DNA from: a virus
DNA: 64,000 nt
IMG/VR virus record: IMGVR_UViG_3300029305_000349
Span: 4,246-68,245 of that record
Direction: 5' to 3' (one strand)
The translations under genes were made by a program, and so were the position numbers. Positions 34,774-39,167 of this stretch are shown piece after piece (positions within the stretch are counted from its first letter, which is position 1; each line of letters begins with the position of its first letter). Below the pieces are notes generated by a model that saw only the letters and a list, made by a program, of their open reading frames with translations, was not told where the DNA came from and searched no databases.

Positions 34774-35070
34774 ATGGCGTTAAAAAAGAAGATTAAACAG
34801 CCGAACGGTGTCGAATTGGAGTATCACCGCATAGCGATGGTTACGATCGAAACTAATCAGCAGACTACTGTACTCGTACGTTCGTACGTGAACGCAGAAG
34901 GTCGTAAGTACGAATTGGATTATGCGGAAGGTAAAATTACTGGAGAACCGGTATTTCCGTACACATCCGGAGCTTACAGGTCATTTGAATACTCTGAAGA
35001 TATGGATATAACGAACGCGTACGAGTGGTTAAAGAAACAGCCTGACTTCGAAGGGGCTGAAGATATTTAA
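34774..35070 (+). CDS. hypothetical phage protein
   Basis: MALKKKI..NGV.LEYHRI...AYEWLKKQPDFEGAEDI. Confidence 0.6.
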   Translation: MALKKKIKQPNGVELEYHRIAMVTIETNQQTTVLVRSYVNAEGRKYELDYAEGKITGEPVFPYTSGAYRSFEYSEDMDITNAYEWLKKQPDFEGAEDI

Positions 35071-35087
35071 TTAAGGAGGACATACAT

Positions 35088-35357
35088 ATGTCAGACACAT
35101 TATTTGTCAAGAATACTATTCAGAGAGTAGGATTTACAGTTATCGACGGAGTCAAGGTTTTACAGCACACCTGCTCAATCGAGTCAGATAACCCGGAAAA
35201 GATGAGAGTCGTTACTACCAAGCTCAACGAGGAGATGTATAAGAATAATCGTAACGCTTGTAGAGCTGATATTGCAGAGTTCGAGGACGGTTCTTATCTG
35301 ATGCAGGAAGAGATACTCGCGAATGTTACTGCTCCGACTCCTGAAGCAAGCGAGTAA
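35088..35357 (+). CDS. hypothetical protein
   Basis: RBS AGGAGG and ORF. Confidence 0.6.
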   Translation: MSDTLFVKNTIQRVGFTVIDGVKVLQHTCSIESDNPEKMRVVTTKLNEEMYKNNRNACRADIAEFEDGSYLMQEEILANVTAPTPEASE

Positions 35358-35371
35358 GCAGGTGGTTCAAA

Positions 35372-35704
35372 ATGATTGAATATGTTATTACATTTATAGC
35401 TGCTATGGGAATCCCATCTACGATTATGGGGTTCCTTGTATGGTGGCTGAAACGGACGATTGATAAGAACGAGAAGAAACGAGAAGAACGTGAATCGGTT
35501 ACCGAACAGCTTATGTTAATAATTATGAAAAACAGCAGAGCTACCAATGTCCTGGCTGAAGCAACTGCTAAGGCGGTACAGCGTATCCCGGACGCGCATT
35601 GCAATGGCGATATGAAAGCCGCCTTAGAAGAAGCAGAAGCGATTCAAAATGAAGAAAAGGACTTCTTATTCGATCAGGGAATAAAGCATATATTTGGTGA
35701 TTAG
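35372..35704 (+). CDS. membrane protein (holin-like/lysis accessory)
   Basis: N-terminal transmembrane helix plus coiled coil, HCNGDM motif. Confidence 0.55.
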   Translation: MIEYVITFIAAMGIPSTIMGFLVWWLKRTIDKNEKKREERESVTEQLMLIIMKNSRATNVLAEATAKAVQRIPDAHCNGDMKAALEEAEAIQNEEKDFLFDQGIKHIFGD

Positions 35705-35754
35705 CGTCGGAAACAGCTCCTATTATGAGAAAATTATATTTAGGAGGGGTACTT

Positions 35755-36078
35755 ATGAAACCAATTGATCTGGGAATGGTTGCCGATATCGCAACGAAGC
35801 TGGGTAGGATAGTTATAAGTGTATGCGCGACCGGCGCGGCGTATAAAATGCTTTCTGAGACATCCGCGAATATCGTGAAATGTTCCGATTATGATGATGC
35901 GATCGGAGCTATCACTGATAGCGATATGTATTCAGGGGATAAAACGAGGGCGATCGCTATGGTCAAAAGACACGAGGAGGAAACCTATTACGCAGCTATC
36001 GTTCGTATTATGTCGGACAAAAGCACGTATTCTGGAGATAAGTTGAGGATGATTCAGCGAATCTCTTCTGAGCAATAA
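35755..36078 (+). CDS. cassette-encoded hypothetical protein
   Basis: Follows promoter motif and AGGAGG; internal repeat YSGDK; terminator at 36089-36121. Confidence 0.7.
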   Translation: MKPIDLGMVADIATKLGRIVISVCATGAAYKMLSETSANIVKCSDYDDAIGAITDSDMYSGDKTRAIAMVKRHEEETYYAAIVRIMSDKSTYSGDKLRMIQRISSEQ

Positions 36079-36188
36079 TTAGCATAGAAGGGCCGGTTTA
36101 ATTACTGGCTCTTTTGTTTTTCTCTAGCGTTAGAAACGAAAGAAGCAAAACGAATCGTTAGGGTGGTATTATATACCTCTACGATTAA

Positions 36189-36235
36189 AAAGAAAAAGCC
36201 TCCGTCACTACGACAGGGGCTCTTCTTTTTCTTTT
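36189..36235. terminator. bidirectional terminator
   Basis: A-tract, AGCCTC..GTC/GAC..GGGGCT hairpin, T-tract between convergent genes. Confidence 0.6.
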
Positions 36236-36353
36236 ATATTTTCTCTTTCTTAATTCGTTCCATCATCTTATAATATTCGGTGTCAGATATACAATCTTTA
36301 ATGAACATCTCTAGTAATCTTTCTTCTTTAGTCTTAGATTCCTTCTGGCTCAA
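36234..36353 (-). CDS. 39-aa protein resembling the integrase coiled-coil tip
   Basis: RBS GAAAGGTGG, TTG start; MSQKESKTKEERLLEMFIKDCISDTEYYKMMERIKKEKI; below the ORF-track size cut-off. Confidence 0.6.
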   Translation of the reverse strand: MSQKESKTKEERLLEMFIKDCISDTEYYKMMERIKKEKI

Positions 36354-36379
36354 GGGTTTCACCACCTTTCATAAAATCA

Positions 36380-36421
36380 GGTGTAACAGGGCGACGTGTG
36401 TCGATGATGTCCAGTTCCACC
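36380..36421. other. candidate attP
   Basis: 42-bp imperfect inverted repeat GGTGTAACAGGGC...GTCCAGTTCCACC centred on GT (36400-36401), directly after the integrase stop. Confidence 0.5.
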
Positions 36422-36427
36422 GTAGAA

Positions 36428-37792
36428 TTACGTAAAAAATATAACCTTTTCAACTCGCTTACCGTTGAACCTTATTTCCTTAATAAGGTCTTGCCAAAAC
36501 TCTTGTTTCTCTTCCTCATTAAGACCTGCATACATAGTTCTGAAATCGGTTTCGAGCAATTTCTTAAGATGATCCACATTCCGAGGTTTTGATATTTCGA
36601 GTTCTTTCTCGGCTTTAGATATAGCAAGTTTAATCTCAGCATCTTCTTTGTAATATTCTTCGTCAGTTTTATTCCCGGCCATAAACATTATATTTAGACG
36701 TCTCAACTGTTCCTTCAAATTCTTTATAGTTCTCTCGGCATTCGATTTATTTCTAGGTTCTCTAGCTTCGATCTCAACTTCAGCTATCGTGTCCAACATA
36801 AATTCGTCCAGACGTTCAAGCAATTGTTTCTCAGTTTTGGTTTCTGCCATACCGCTGTGATTACTACAACCTCTTCCTCGATGCGCGCATCTATAACTTT
36901 TATTCATTCGTCCATACCTCCTATCGACATCCCCGCACAATTTATTACCGCACTCGGGACATCTCATTAAACCTCGGAAATAGTATGCCACTCCAGTAGG
37001 CGTTCCTTTTATTGTATCTCGCTCTTGAAATTTAAGGAACTTATCTGGGGATACGTATGCAGGACAGAAATCCTGAACGCCTCTATGGATGCCGCAATAA
37101 AAATCACTTTGCGTCATACGTTTCCAAGTTTTCCAGTCTTTTACTATACCATAAGTATTAATCATGTGTCGAATGGCTTTGTTCATGTTATTAGACTCTA
37201 GTAGGATATCCCAAAATTCTTGAACCGCCTGTTGAGTATCGGGATCTTTAATCAATCGACTTATACCATTTGCATCTTTCTCTTTCTTGTATCCGAATGG
37301 TACCGCACGTCCTCCAAAACAAGCTTCTTTATTTTTACGCTTTTGTTCTAATACTACTTTGATACGTTCTGCTGTTCTATCACGTTCGTTCTGAGCAACG
37401 GCTAAGAAGATTGTGATAGCCATTTGACCGTTAGCGGTAGTAGTGTCGTAGTTTTCGTGAATGGTTTTCCACTCGACTCGATTATTGTCCAGAACGTCCT
37501 GTACTTTGAAATATTCTTTAACCGATCTAAACCATCTATCCAATTTGGTAAACAGAATCATATCGATTTTCCCAGCTTCCACGTCGTCTAGTAATCTCTT
37601 AAGCGCTGGACGTTTTAAAGGTGGTTTTGCTCCGGATATACCTTCGTCGATATATTCATCTACGATCTTAAGGTTGTTCTCCTTACAATATTCTCTTAAA
37701 TTAGCAATTTGCGTTTCGATTGAGAATCCATGTAAAGCTTGTTCCTCTGTACTTACCCTAATGTATAAAGCTACTCTGCGAATCCTGCTCAT
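36428..37792 (-). CDS. int: large serine recombinase (integrase)
   Basis: YIRVST catalytic Ser, DEGISG, KLDRWFR, PFGY, Zn ribbon CPECG..YRC; RBS AAGGAG before ATG 37792. Confidence 0.95.
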   Translation of the reverse strand: MSRIRRVALYIRVSTEEQALHGFSIETQIANLREYCKENNLKIVDEYIDEGISGAKPPLKRPALKRLLDDVEAGKIDMILFTKLDRWFRSVKEYFKVQDVLDNNRVEWKTIHENYDTTTANGQMAITIFLAVAQNERDRTAERIKVVLEQKRKNKEACFGGRAVPFGYKKEKDANGISRLIKDPDTQQAVQEFWDILLESNNMNKAIRHMINTYGIVKDWKTWKRMTQSDFYCGIHRGVQDFCPAYVSPDKFLKFQERDTIKGTPTGVAYYFRGLMRCPECGNKLCGDVDRRYGRMNKSYRCAHRGRGCSNHSGMAETKTEKQLLERLDEFMLDTIAEVEIEAREPRNKSNAERTIKNLKEQLRRLNIMFMAGNKTDEEYYKEDAEIKLAISKAEKELEISKPRNVDHLKKLLETDFRTMYAGLNEEEKQEFWQDLIKEIRFNGKRVEKVIFFT

Positions 37793-37850
37793 GATGTATA
37801 ACTCCTTAATTATATTTTGTAATAGGTACCAAAGTTGCATACAATTACCA

Positions 37851-37915
37851 TTGAAAACTAAGTATTCAGTTTTTTATAATAATTTACGCAAGTGACATTA
37901 GTCCTATTAATGTCA
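37851..37915 (+). promoter_or_regulatory. sigma-70-like promoter and palindromic operator in the int/early divergent region
   Basis: TTGAAA-N18-TATAAT (37851-37880); TGACATTA-N7-TAATGTCA (37893-37915). Confidence 0.5.
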
Positions 37916-37943
37916 TAATAACATATTTTCAGAGGAGTGGAAA

Positions 37944-38057
37944 ATGAAATCTAGAATAGAAGAAGTACTTAGTCGAATATTAAGTAGAAAACACGACGCT
38001 GATATTAAGATTAGTTTCAAGGAGAGAAAGTCATGTCAGAAAAAACAAAAGAAATAA
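37944..38057 (+). CDS. 37-aa protein divergent from the integrase
   Basis: RBS AGGAG; MKSRIEEVLSRILSRKHDADIKISFKERK... Confidence 0.5.
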   Translation: MKSRIEEVLSRILSRKHDADIKISFKERKSCQKKQKK

Positions 38058-38185
38058 TCAACGAACTGTGCAAATTGATATTAGTACAGGAACAGGAAAT
38101 CGAGAAGTTGCGGAAACGAAATAAGTTATGTGAGGAATACATAGAGATTTACGAAGAGTTCATCAAAGGGAGGTCTGAACAGTGA
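38033..38185 (+). CDS. 50-aa coiled-coil protein
   Basis: RBS AAGGAG; overlaps both neighbours. Confidence 0.5.
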   Translation: MSEKTKEIINELCKLILVQEQEIEKLRKRNKLCEEYIEIYEEFIKGRSEQ

Positions 38186-38601
38186 GTGTTACTGTCAGGG
38201 CCGAGGTAGTTACGACTAATAGATATTGGATTAGCAAACATCGGCATTACGAATTGAAACATTTCTGTTTACAGTATCCTATTTGGAAAAGGGATTATGC
38301 TAGTTTTAATGACGATAGTGTATCGCTTTCTACGATTGAGAACTCGCCAACGAGTAATTTACCGGGCGATCCTACAGCCAAACGTGCAATTATGAAAGCT
38401 GCGTTAATCGAGAAGATAGAATTAGTAGAGACAGCTGCTCGTGAAGCTGATAGATATTTATATGAATACATAATAAAAGGCGTTACCGAGAGTTTATCGT
38501 ATTCGGCTCTGAAAGCTAAGTATGATATTCCGTGTGGTAAAGATATGTACTATGACAGGTACAGACGATTCTTCTGGTTGTTAAGTGAAGCGCGTGGGTG
38601 A
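38182..38601 (+). CDS. putative ArpU/RinA-like transcriptional activator
   Basis: 139 aa; DPTAKRA, then a C-terminal helix-turn-helix-like LSYSAL..IPCGKDMYYDRYRRFFWLL. Confidence 0.5.
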   Translation: MSVTVRAEVVTTNRYWISKHRHYELKHFCLQYPIWKRDYASFNDDSVSLSTIENSPTSNLPGDPTAKRAIMKAALIEKIELVETAAREADRYLYEYIIKGVTESLSYSALKAKYDIPCGKDMYYDRYRRFFWLLSEARG

Positions 38602-38654
38602 TTCGCGTAAAATTCCACTCCTATTATGAGAAAATTATATTAGGAGGGCTTATT

Positions 38655-38867
38655 ATGGCTTGGAGTTTCAAAAAAAAGAACAGGTATGATGAAGATCCTA
38701 GAGAACTGTATAGAAAAGTCGTAGAAATGGATGATCGTGGGGTTCCCTACGATAGAATCGCGGAAGCGACTGGGTTATTACGGTTTCAGGTAATCGATAT
38801 CGTTCAGTGTGAATTTGGAAGGAGGAAAGTACAGGCAACAGCACAGAGATATAATCTCGACATTTGA
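38655..38867 (+). CDS. cassette-encoded small HTH protein
   Basis: GVPYDRIAEATGLLRFQVIDIV; terminator at 38866-38890. Confidence 0.6.
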   Translation: MAWSFKKKNRYDEDPRELYRKVVEMDDRGVPYDRIAEATGLLRFQVIDIVQCEFGRRKVQATAQRYNLDI

Positions 38868-38990
38868 GGGCTTCGGTCCTCTTTTGTTTTCTGTGTGAAG
38901 GAACTGATGACAGTCGAGAACGTAGTGAGGTAATTCGCGCCAGAAATAGTTCCTATTATGAGAAGATAATATATTTAGGAGGAGATTGTT

Positions 38991-39167
38991 ATGTTATTAA
39001 ATATTATGGTGGTAACATTAGCTGTATTTGTAGGGAATACGTTATTCTACGGAGCGTTATTTGCGCTTGCTATGAATAAGAAGTTTTTAAAATGGTATAC
39101 AAAATACACAATGAAAAAATCAGTAGAAATTGGTAACGAATTATTCGACGAAAAAGGTGTTATTTAA
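38991..39167 (+). CDS. cassette-encoded 58-aa membrane protein
   Basis: AGGAGG; MLLNIMVVTLAVFVGNTLFYGALFALAM...; terminator at 39174-39203. Confidence 0.65.
   Translation: MLLNIMVVTLAVFVGNTLFYGALFALAMNKKFLKWYTKYTMKKSVEIGNELFDEKGVI

Follow-up and report, generated by a model that had tools for sequence, protein, structure and literature searches.

The coiled coil of the large serine integrases has a hydrophobic tip, and the tips touch one another in synapsis and again in the locked product dimers, according to the available portion of PMC11722253. The same portion places the binding of recombination directionality factors on the zinc-ribbon domain and the inter-hinge segment. The predicted protein that we describe here, a product of 39 aa encoded beside a phage int gene, resembles the coiled-coil insert of the LI, SPbeta, Bxb1 and phiC31 integrases in being a helix-turn-helix hairpin with a shared residue pattern, but it consists of one hairpin and possesses neither the long helices nor the zinc-ribbon domain. 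Like the directionality factors, it is a small phage protein that could bind the C-terminal region of the integrase; the factors, however, attach to the zinc-ribbon domain and to the coiled coil at its base, and their target is no hairpin of similar kind (PMC12286644 and PMC11722253, as far as the available text of each goes). In the literature within our reach, outside which most subscription papers lie, we found neither a coiled-coil-like small protein for serine integrases nor a description of serine integrases that target sirtuin genes.

The sib element of phage lambda is an RNA structure that destabilises the int mRNA. With respect to its position, sib is comparable to the gene described here, since it lies beyond attP, on the int transcript of the phage DNA, and is removed by integration. 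The difference is that a protein-coding gene occupies this place in the present locus and that the recombinase is a serine, not a tyrosine, recombinase. Retroregulation of int by sib is mentioned in the available part of PMC6379469.

A further comparison is with SHOCT (PF09851), a motif of about 30 residues in which two amphipathic helices are joined by a short turn, an arrangement that is predicted for the present protein as well. SHOCT is a C-terminal appendage, whereas the protein described here is free-standing. According to the available portion of Eberhardt et al. (2013; PMC3581485), SHOCT has a strongly conserved glycine and glutamate, is found with many unrelated domains and has no known function, and its oligomerisation was unsupported by the paper's own test.

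Results

Organization of the int locus

The window is the whole stretch of 64,000 nt that was analysed, and all positions refer to it; the parent virus record is complete, with 68,245 bp and direct terminal repeats. The features of the int locus are listed in Table 1. The start and stop codons of the small ORF, its RBS, the terminator and the end of the integrase gene, as laid out in a preliminary description of the locus, were all found in place; the ORF has its own RBS, equivalents of which are kept in relatives, and a terminator behind it.

Table 1. Features of the int locus, in window positions
Feature	Position	Strand	Remarks
Large serine integrase	36428..37792	-	454 aa from ATG 37792
Integrase segment matched by the peptide	36631..36723	-	Residues 357-387 of the 454-aa form; coordinates computed from residue numbers
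Candidate attP, 42-bp imperfect inverted repeat	36380..36421	.	Predicted crossover AC (gene strand) at 36400-36401
RBS AAAGGTGGTG	36360..36369	-	6 nt upstream of the TTG start
39-aa ORF (type 1 small protein)	36234..36353	-	TTG 36353; stop TAA 36234-36236
Hairpin with T-runs on both strands	~36187..36222	.	Intrinsic terminator of the int/small-ORF transcript

The integrase matches the Pfam families Resolvase (E 5.9e-38) and Zn_ribbon_recom (E 7.3e-07). Its longest ORF, of 470 aa, begins at ATG 37840; the record's own protein (P0017) has 454 aa and begins at ATG 37792, as do the relatives, and we number the integrase in this form. An alternative, longer form of the small ORF has 43 aa and starts at GTG 36365. 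In the library of the word-indexed protein search, the integrase of the window is represented by one entry (P0017) and the small ORF by none. The terminator, for which a terminator search gave a minus-strand core at 36216-36202 followed by a T-run, is common to the int/small-ORF transcript and the convergent late/lysis genes. A promoter consensus scan of the minus strand between 36354 and 37142 found no sigma-70-like site. Of the two marks of a cargo gene ("moron"), an own promoter and a terminator, the second is present at the small ORF, and for the first the consensus scan, the one method applied, gave no sigma-70-like site.

On the opposite strand, a 117-aa ORF (35725-36078, +) ends facing the terminator and has no Pfam family above threshold. 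It contains a 27-nt direct repeat, with the copies 99 nt apart and 74% identical, which gives two Y-S-G-D-K-x-R-x-I stretches.

The small ORF is conserved at its place behind int

Viral and metagenome contigs were scanned with the small-ORF alignment, and a further locus (L102) came from an integrase-first scan. The order of int stop codon, inverted repeat, purine-rich RBS, ORF of 37-45 codons and terminator hairpin was found in 9 further distinct loci (L003/L006/L101, L004, L005, L007, L008, L009, L010, L011 and L102). The contig of L009 begins just 80 nt upstream of the small ORF. In the 9 loci with enough upstream DNA (8 distinct sequences), the integrase stop codon lies about 75-80 nt upstream of the small ORF, and the integrases of these loci are 57-84% identical to that of the window. 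The purine-rich RBS stands at an equal distance from the start codon in all 10 oriented rows (9 distinct sequences, the window included), and of 10 distinct sequences, 5 begin with TTG and 5 with ATG. A hairpin with a T-run follows in all of the aligned rows, behind the small ORF itself or, in L003, L006 and L007, behind a second small ORF. The latter, a conserved ORF of 40-42 aa (M-K-K-T-Y-K-F-E-N-A-T-...), overlaps the end of the first (L003:4122-4250; L007 after 1810; L102:3046-3168); it was seen in three to four loci, the window not among them, and matches no family.

Across a 28-codon core of 9 sequences, pN ranged from 0.01 to 0.31 and pS from 0.08 to 1.1; pN was the smaller of the two in every one of the 36 pairs, and omega was 0.04-0.56 in the 16 pairs with unsaturated dS. 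This pattern indicates that the small ORF is under purifying selection. At the protein level, a word-indexed search returned 4 relatives of 76-86% identity, and a search of 1.84 billion representative proteins with the family HMM returned 12, all of 30-78 aa. The small protein of the window had no match in Pfam and none in PHROGs at E<=0.01, and the phage GenBank collection gave no DNA match for 35000-39000; the closest protein to the integrase in that collection is 36% identical. In a protein atlas the nearest clusters are unnamed, and a cluster at rank 29 (score 0.77) has DUF4368 in 13% of its members, which can serve as a lead only. On this comparative evidence, the small ORF is a real, conserved accessory micro-gene.

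The gene is dispensable for closely related integrases

To describe how often the slot behind attP is filled, we used an integrase-first sample of viral contigs, which gave 31 loci with integrases of at least 43% identity, 29 of them with at least 200 nt of downstream sequence. The slot holds the window type of small ORF in 2 of the 29 loci, a two-unit type (see below) in 5, an unrelated ORF of 41-44 aa in 3 and no small ORF in 19, so that the small-protein family, in one form or the other, accounts for 7 of the 10 filled slots. The presence of the ORF downstream of related integrases, which the preliminary description had put forward as a check, was thus confirmed at the 9 further distinct loci, but 19 of the 29 sampled loci have no such ORF. 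Loci without it include four with an 81% identical integrase and the same downstream sequence (L097-L100), L104=L002 (74%), L103 (66%) and L105 (62%), and at all of these loci the terminator comes immediately after the repeat. Because relatives as close as these do without it, the small protein is not required for integrase function or recombination. The hairpin sequence of the integrase, L-R-R-L-N-x-x-Y-M-A-G-N-..., is identical in loci with and without the small ORF, and we therefore see no sign of co-evolution.

The unrelated ORFs of 41-44 aa are themselves conserved and lie past an attP-like repeat behind integrases of 46-47% identity (L123:2986-3111; L124:2980-3114; L125:2980-3111). Small genes therefore recur in this slot.

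Relatives of the phage integrate into sirtuin genes

The inverted repeat behind the int stop codon is kept in all related loci. Its best centre falls on AC at 13 of the 16 loci with a small ORF (36400-36401 in the window), and the attP cores are alike across loci (...TC(A/G)-AC...). A genome scan with the integrase alignment recovered integrases of 54-63% identity in MAGs, and at two of these (L013:11356-12059 and L014:11359-12249) an attR was seen, in which int and the P arm are followed by Sir2 coding sequence (E-S-G-I-P-D-F-R...) with the junction exactly at the central AC. The Sir2-family genes at the two junctions match Pfam SIR2 with E values of 2e-39 and 1e-45. The genome of L014 also contains an attL about 25 kb away (L093, reverse strand, about 1441-1620), where the start of the sirtuin, ...F-F-G-G-A-G-V-S-T, is followed by AC and the P' arm. 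L013 and the free phage L107 have equal P arms. A clade of serine integrases 54-58% identical to that of the window inserts into the G-A-G-x-S-T-E-S-G-I-P-D-F stretch of the host Sir2 gene; the crossover takes place at an AC within a threonine codon, and both junctions are seen in one genome.

These junctions of relatives at the central AC support the earlier placement of attP between int and the small ORF. An attP of a large serine integrase is expected to be an imperfect inverted repeat of 40-50 bp about a central dinucleotide, the place where phage-host junctions form. The 42-bp repeat of the window, which has the central AC, is a credible attP, for which host junctions are known from relatives, and similarity of the attP cores makes a sirtuin target likely for the window's own phage. 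The sole attL, that of L093, comes from a phage that lacks the small ORF, and an attL of the L107 type was not found in G001. A scan of genome contigs with the small-ORF profile for lysogens that carry the type 1 ORF gave 0 matches, as did a search of 401 genomes of the order of G002; the small ORF of L012 was found in its own genome only. Contigs from 4 sequencing runs contain the uninterrupted phage form and no host junction. The 12 contig rows with the phage are all DNA, and 11 of the 12 are from feces metagenomes. In run X3 there is a loose end at 36390 that looks like the attP of a related phage: a low-depth contig (window 36341-36390) has the start region of the small ORF with 3 differences and then diverges into a different attP-like sequence, and a related phage therefore coexists in that sample.

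Two side observations concern the junction regions. Near the prophage-host junction of L014 (11360-11620), a segment of the P arm with its flank is present three times around a masked stretch of N; either the assembly is at fault here or part of the att region has been duplicated in tandem. In some sister phages, a mini-gene of 54 codons stands between int and attP (L012:7536-7700; L015:1369-1533; L096:2811-2975, the same as L109:2869-3033; L110:2869-3033). Its product reproduces a sirtuin N-terminus (Pfam SIR2 23.4 bits, cut-off 24), and its reading frame continues into attP; the crossover would join it in frame to what remains of the host gene and so rebuild a sirtuin ORF with a duplicated S-T-E-S-G-x-P-D-F-R stretch.

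Integration would rewire transcription of the small ORF

On circular phage DNA, the small ORF would be the second cistron of the int transcript, because it has an RBS and no promoter of its own. Since attP lies between the two genes, integration would uncouple the small ORF from the int transcript and move it to the opposite end of the prophage, behind the truncated 5' part of the host sirtuin gene. In a lysogen, its transcription would then start at the host promoter and be separate from that of int. The recombination-state switch of the preliminary description, understood as transcriptional uncoupling, is well founded by the position of attP; the step itself we infer.

To predict the truncated host frame, we let the AC supply the first two bases of the threonine codon, which is its place in the verified attB. 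The stop of this frame would lie upstream of the start codon of the small ORF, at a distance of 15 nt in the window, L004 and L005 and of 14 nt in L008 and L102; in L003 and L007, frame and start codon would overlap. An in-frame fusion of the host sirtuin to the peptide was ruled out for the window, where a TGA lies four codons before the TTG. We also considered whether the attP repeat might terminate transcription ahead of the small ORF, a reading that proved inconsistent across loci.

A two-unit sister protein links the family to SHOCT

Phages with 53-58% identical integrases have, at the same place after attP, an ORF of 51-52 aa that is composed of two tandem units (type 2; L012, L015, L096=L109, L107, L111=L112 and L114). 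When the type 1 and type 2 families were compared with hhalign, the type 1 family aligned to the second unit over 21 columns (probability 88%, E 3.2e-6). The window protein is probably a one-unit form of the two-unit sister. Four of 5 scanned type 2 proteins match Pfam SHOCT below the cut-off (17.1-26.3 bits versus 27), and further weak Pfam matches of the type 2 proteins are to small phage and other proteins (Phage_XkdX, GvpG and VbhA).

The window family itself remains below the Pfam gathering threshold, with a SHOCT match in 0 of 13 members at E<=10. It differs from SHOCT at both of the conserved positions. The strongly conserved glycine is replaced by D or A in 13 rows and by N, E or A in further members, and a glycine at the SHOCT-equivalent position of the turn is present in P0016 only, the correspondence of the columns being judged by eye from the type 2 alignment; the column of the conserved glutamate varies (E/Q/D/T/H/R). 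Our verdict is that type 1 probably represents a new family of SHOCT-like accessory micro-proteins, the sister proteins providing the link to SHOCT.

Similarity to the coiled coil of the integrase

The similarity that had drawn attention to the small ORF was an ungapped alignment of 25 residues to the integrase, in which we counted the same 11 identities as the preliminary description. In the window pair, BLASTP aligned 18 residues with 9 identities (E 0.007, as a single comparison), and the Smith-Waterman score was 45, a value that 36 of 5000 shuffled peptides attained. The integrase was the best of 66 window ORF products of at least 100 aa, the next of which scored 39. For this pair the similarity appears to be marginally above chance. 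The same comparison of the peptide with its own integrase was not significant in sister loci, where the score was reached by 59 (L003), 64 (L007), 215 (L004) and 697 (L008) of 1000 shuffles. The hhalign comparison of the small family with the integrase family placed peptide residues 4-34 on integrase residues 357-387 with an E value of 0.031 and a probability of 1.6%, and the type 1 family HMM retrieved no integrase, either among the 1.84 billion representative proteins or among the loci. The invariant turn residues of the integrase, M-A-G-N-K, are unmatched by the I-K-D-C-I of the peptide. Homology to the coiled coil is unsupported, because the pair scores are weak and the type 1 HMM retrieves no integrase.

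The two-unit proteins were compared in the same way. That of L012, aligned with its own integrase over the same segment, scored 56, which none of 1000 shuffles reached, and hhalign of the two-unit family with the integrase family gave E 0.006 and a probability of 6% (integrase 329-381). Searched against 33,836 stop-to-stop ORF segments, the type 2 HMM had 32 matches at E<=1, consisting of 9 type 2 rows, 10 type 1 rows, 1 other short ORF and 12 serine integrases. Among segments of at least 300 aa, the matches comprised 12 of the 113 integrase-like ones (8 of 100 distinct) versus 0 of 490 others; a Fisher value of 1e-9 overstates the independence of these counts, because the matched integrases are related proteins. 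Some of them are only 36-39% identical to the integrase of the window. In six printed integrase alignments and in the rows of the domain table, the strongest match falls at about residues 343-427.

The residues in common can be written as aromatic-x-x-(G/D)-x-(I/L/K)-(S/T)-x-x-E-aromatic. This pattern occurs in 16 of the 100 distinct integrases in the loci, always at a relative position of 0.80-0.83, and its density is 3.35 per 10,000 residues in integrases versus 0.05 elsewhere, a difference of about 67-fold; we composed the pattern only after inspecting the sequences. By profile and pattern, one motif class, SHOCT-like as well, is common to the small proteins and the hairpin of the integrase, either by descent or by convergence. 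Of the original proposal that the peptide is a mimic of the integrase coiled coil, the shared motif survives by virtue of the type 2 HMM and the pattern, whereas homology went undetected by the type 1 HMM and by hhalign.

Predicted structures

The AF2 model of the peptide (pLDDT 84.4) consists of two helices, 9-21 and 24-37, with a two-residue turn, and Foldseek found no match to it in the PDB. The model of the integrase (pLDDT 79.8, 454-residue numbering) matches solved complexes of serine integrases with DNA (9dxh_A, E 2.7e-19; Bxb1 9iu2_A, 6.4e-19; 4kis_A, 1.3e-11). It has zinc-ribbon strands at 284-302, a helix at 317-344, a loop, a helix at 352-371, the turn A-G-N-K-T at 372-376 and a helix at 377-401. 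The segment aligned with the peptide begins near the end of helix 352-371, passes through the AGNKT turn and reaches into helix 377-401 of the coiled-coil insert, which agrees with its earlier assignment to the coiled coil after the zinc ribbon. In the model, the matched segment is a helix-turn-helix hairpin within this insert, and we read from the topology that it would be the very tip of the coiled coil. A prediction of the complex of integrase residues 270-454 with the peptide, made with alignments, scored 0.01 in two runs, a value that, with the controls not folded, speaks neither for nor against binding.

Discussion

Our explanation of the locus as a whole, of which we are somewhat more convinced than doubtful, is that the small ORF is a promoterless gene for a SHOCT-like accessory hairpin, with integration-dependent wiring, in a clade of phages from feces metagenomes; relatives of their integrase insert into a sirtuin gene. 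A protein-binding role is the most plausible one, because the product is predicted to be a bare amphipathic hairpin, and the small protein would therefore act by binding another protein. The chances that this partner is unrelated to the integrase are about even.

One such explanation is a lysogeny-associated cargo gene: its product, directed at a host or phage protein and not at the integrase, would be made in lysogens from the promoter of the interrupted sirtuin gene, and its motif likeness to the coiled coil would be without functional meaning. We consider this reading to be nearly an even call. It accords with the variability of the slot, which is empty in 19 of 29 loci and has a different small ORF in 3, with the weak matches of the type 2 proteins to Phage_XkdX, GvpG and VbhA, and with the occurrence of SHOCT-like motifs beside many unrelated domains (PMC3581485, available portion). 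It fits less well with a gene that, unlike typical cargo genes, has no promoter of its own, or with the finding that 7 of 10 filled slots hold the small-protein family, and no candidate target is known.

The leading single candidate for a partner would be the tip hairpin of the integrase coiled coil. We regard it as the best candidate because the two have the same motif, two diverged forms of the small protein are tied to int-attP and the gene would be co-expressed with int; it nevertheless has a minority chance, well below even, of being the true one, because the pair scores are low, relatives do without the gene, integration would be ill served by an inhibitor made together with Int, and SHOCT-like units occur with many unrelated proteins. 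We infer every step of this binding. At the tip, the small protein would compete with the coiled-coil contacts that hold the integrase dimers in synapsis and in the locked product state.

A specific form of binding to the integrase is the decoy of the preliminary description, a free copy of the coiled-coil tip that would bind the tip and block or redirect its contacts, so that recombination would be controlled through the linkage of the small gene to int. The hydrophobic tip of the coiled coil does make activating and locking contacts (PMC11722253, available portion), and the motif common to the peptide family and the coiled-coil hairpin, the retention of two diverged forms at exactly this place beside integrases of 53-100% identity, and co-transcription with int on the circular genome, with no promoter between the genes, all speak for a decoy. 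The similarity, however, is marginal in the window pair and lacking at L004 and L008, a search with the family HMM brings up no integrase and the M-A-G-N-K turn is unmatched. Furthermore, the small ORF is missing beside 81% and 74% identical integrases without co-variation, and an inhibitor expressed together with int would hinder integration. On balance, the decoy is doubtful.

Alternatively, the peptide might be a recombination directionality factor that binds the junction of the zinc ribbon and the coiled coil and switches the integrase to excision. The known factors share no fold, and some are predicted to have helices only, according to the available portion of PMC12286644; the small gene adjoins int, but adjacency is no argument here, given that the same portion finds no consistent synteny of these factors with int. 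Made together with Int on the infecting DNA, such a factor would block integration, and in the lysogen it would be expressed from a host promoter, not on induction; it is, in addition, absent from close relatives. We think that this role is improbable, and less likely than binding to the integrase tip because the timing of expression is the wrong way round. Least probable of all, and very unlikely, is a chance ORF or a non-functional remnant of the integrase gene, the decayed fragment to which the preliminary description would have turned had the ORF not been conserved: the ORF is short, without a database family and lost in several lineages, but its protein is kept though synonymous sites are near saturation, pN is below pS throughout, the RBS, start codon and gene order are conserved, and 12 relatives of alike length exist in the library of 1.84 billion proteins.

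The locus adds to what is known of these phages a conserved micro-gene family that is missing from Pfam and PHROGs, and integration may rewire the transcription of this gene. Because the integrase clade targets a conserved sirtuin motif, its attB sites are predictable. It is unlikely, in our estimate, that a free copy of the tip tunes synapsis or product locking, its supply being switched by recombination, and that the two-unit sister does likewise. If this were true, large serine integrases would be controlled in a third way, in addition to the identity of the sites and the directionality factors. These integrases are widely used tools of genome engineering, and their direction is set by the contacts of the coiled-coil tips; a peptide that binds the tips, if that is what the small protein does, would offer a new and very small handle for their control.
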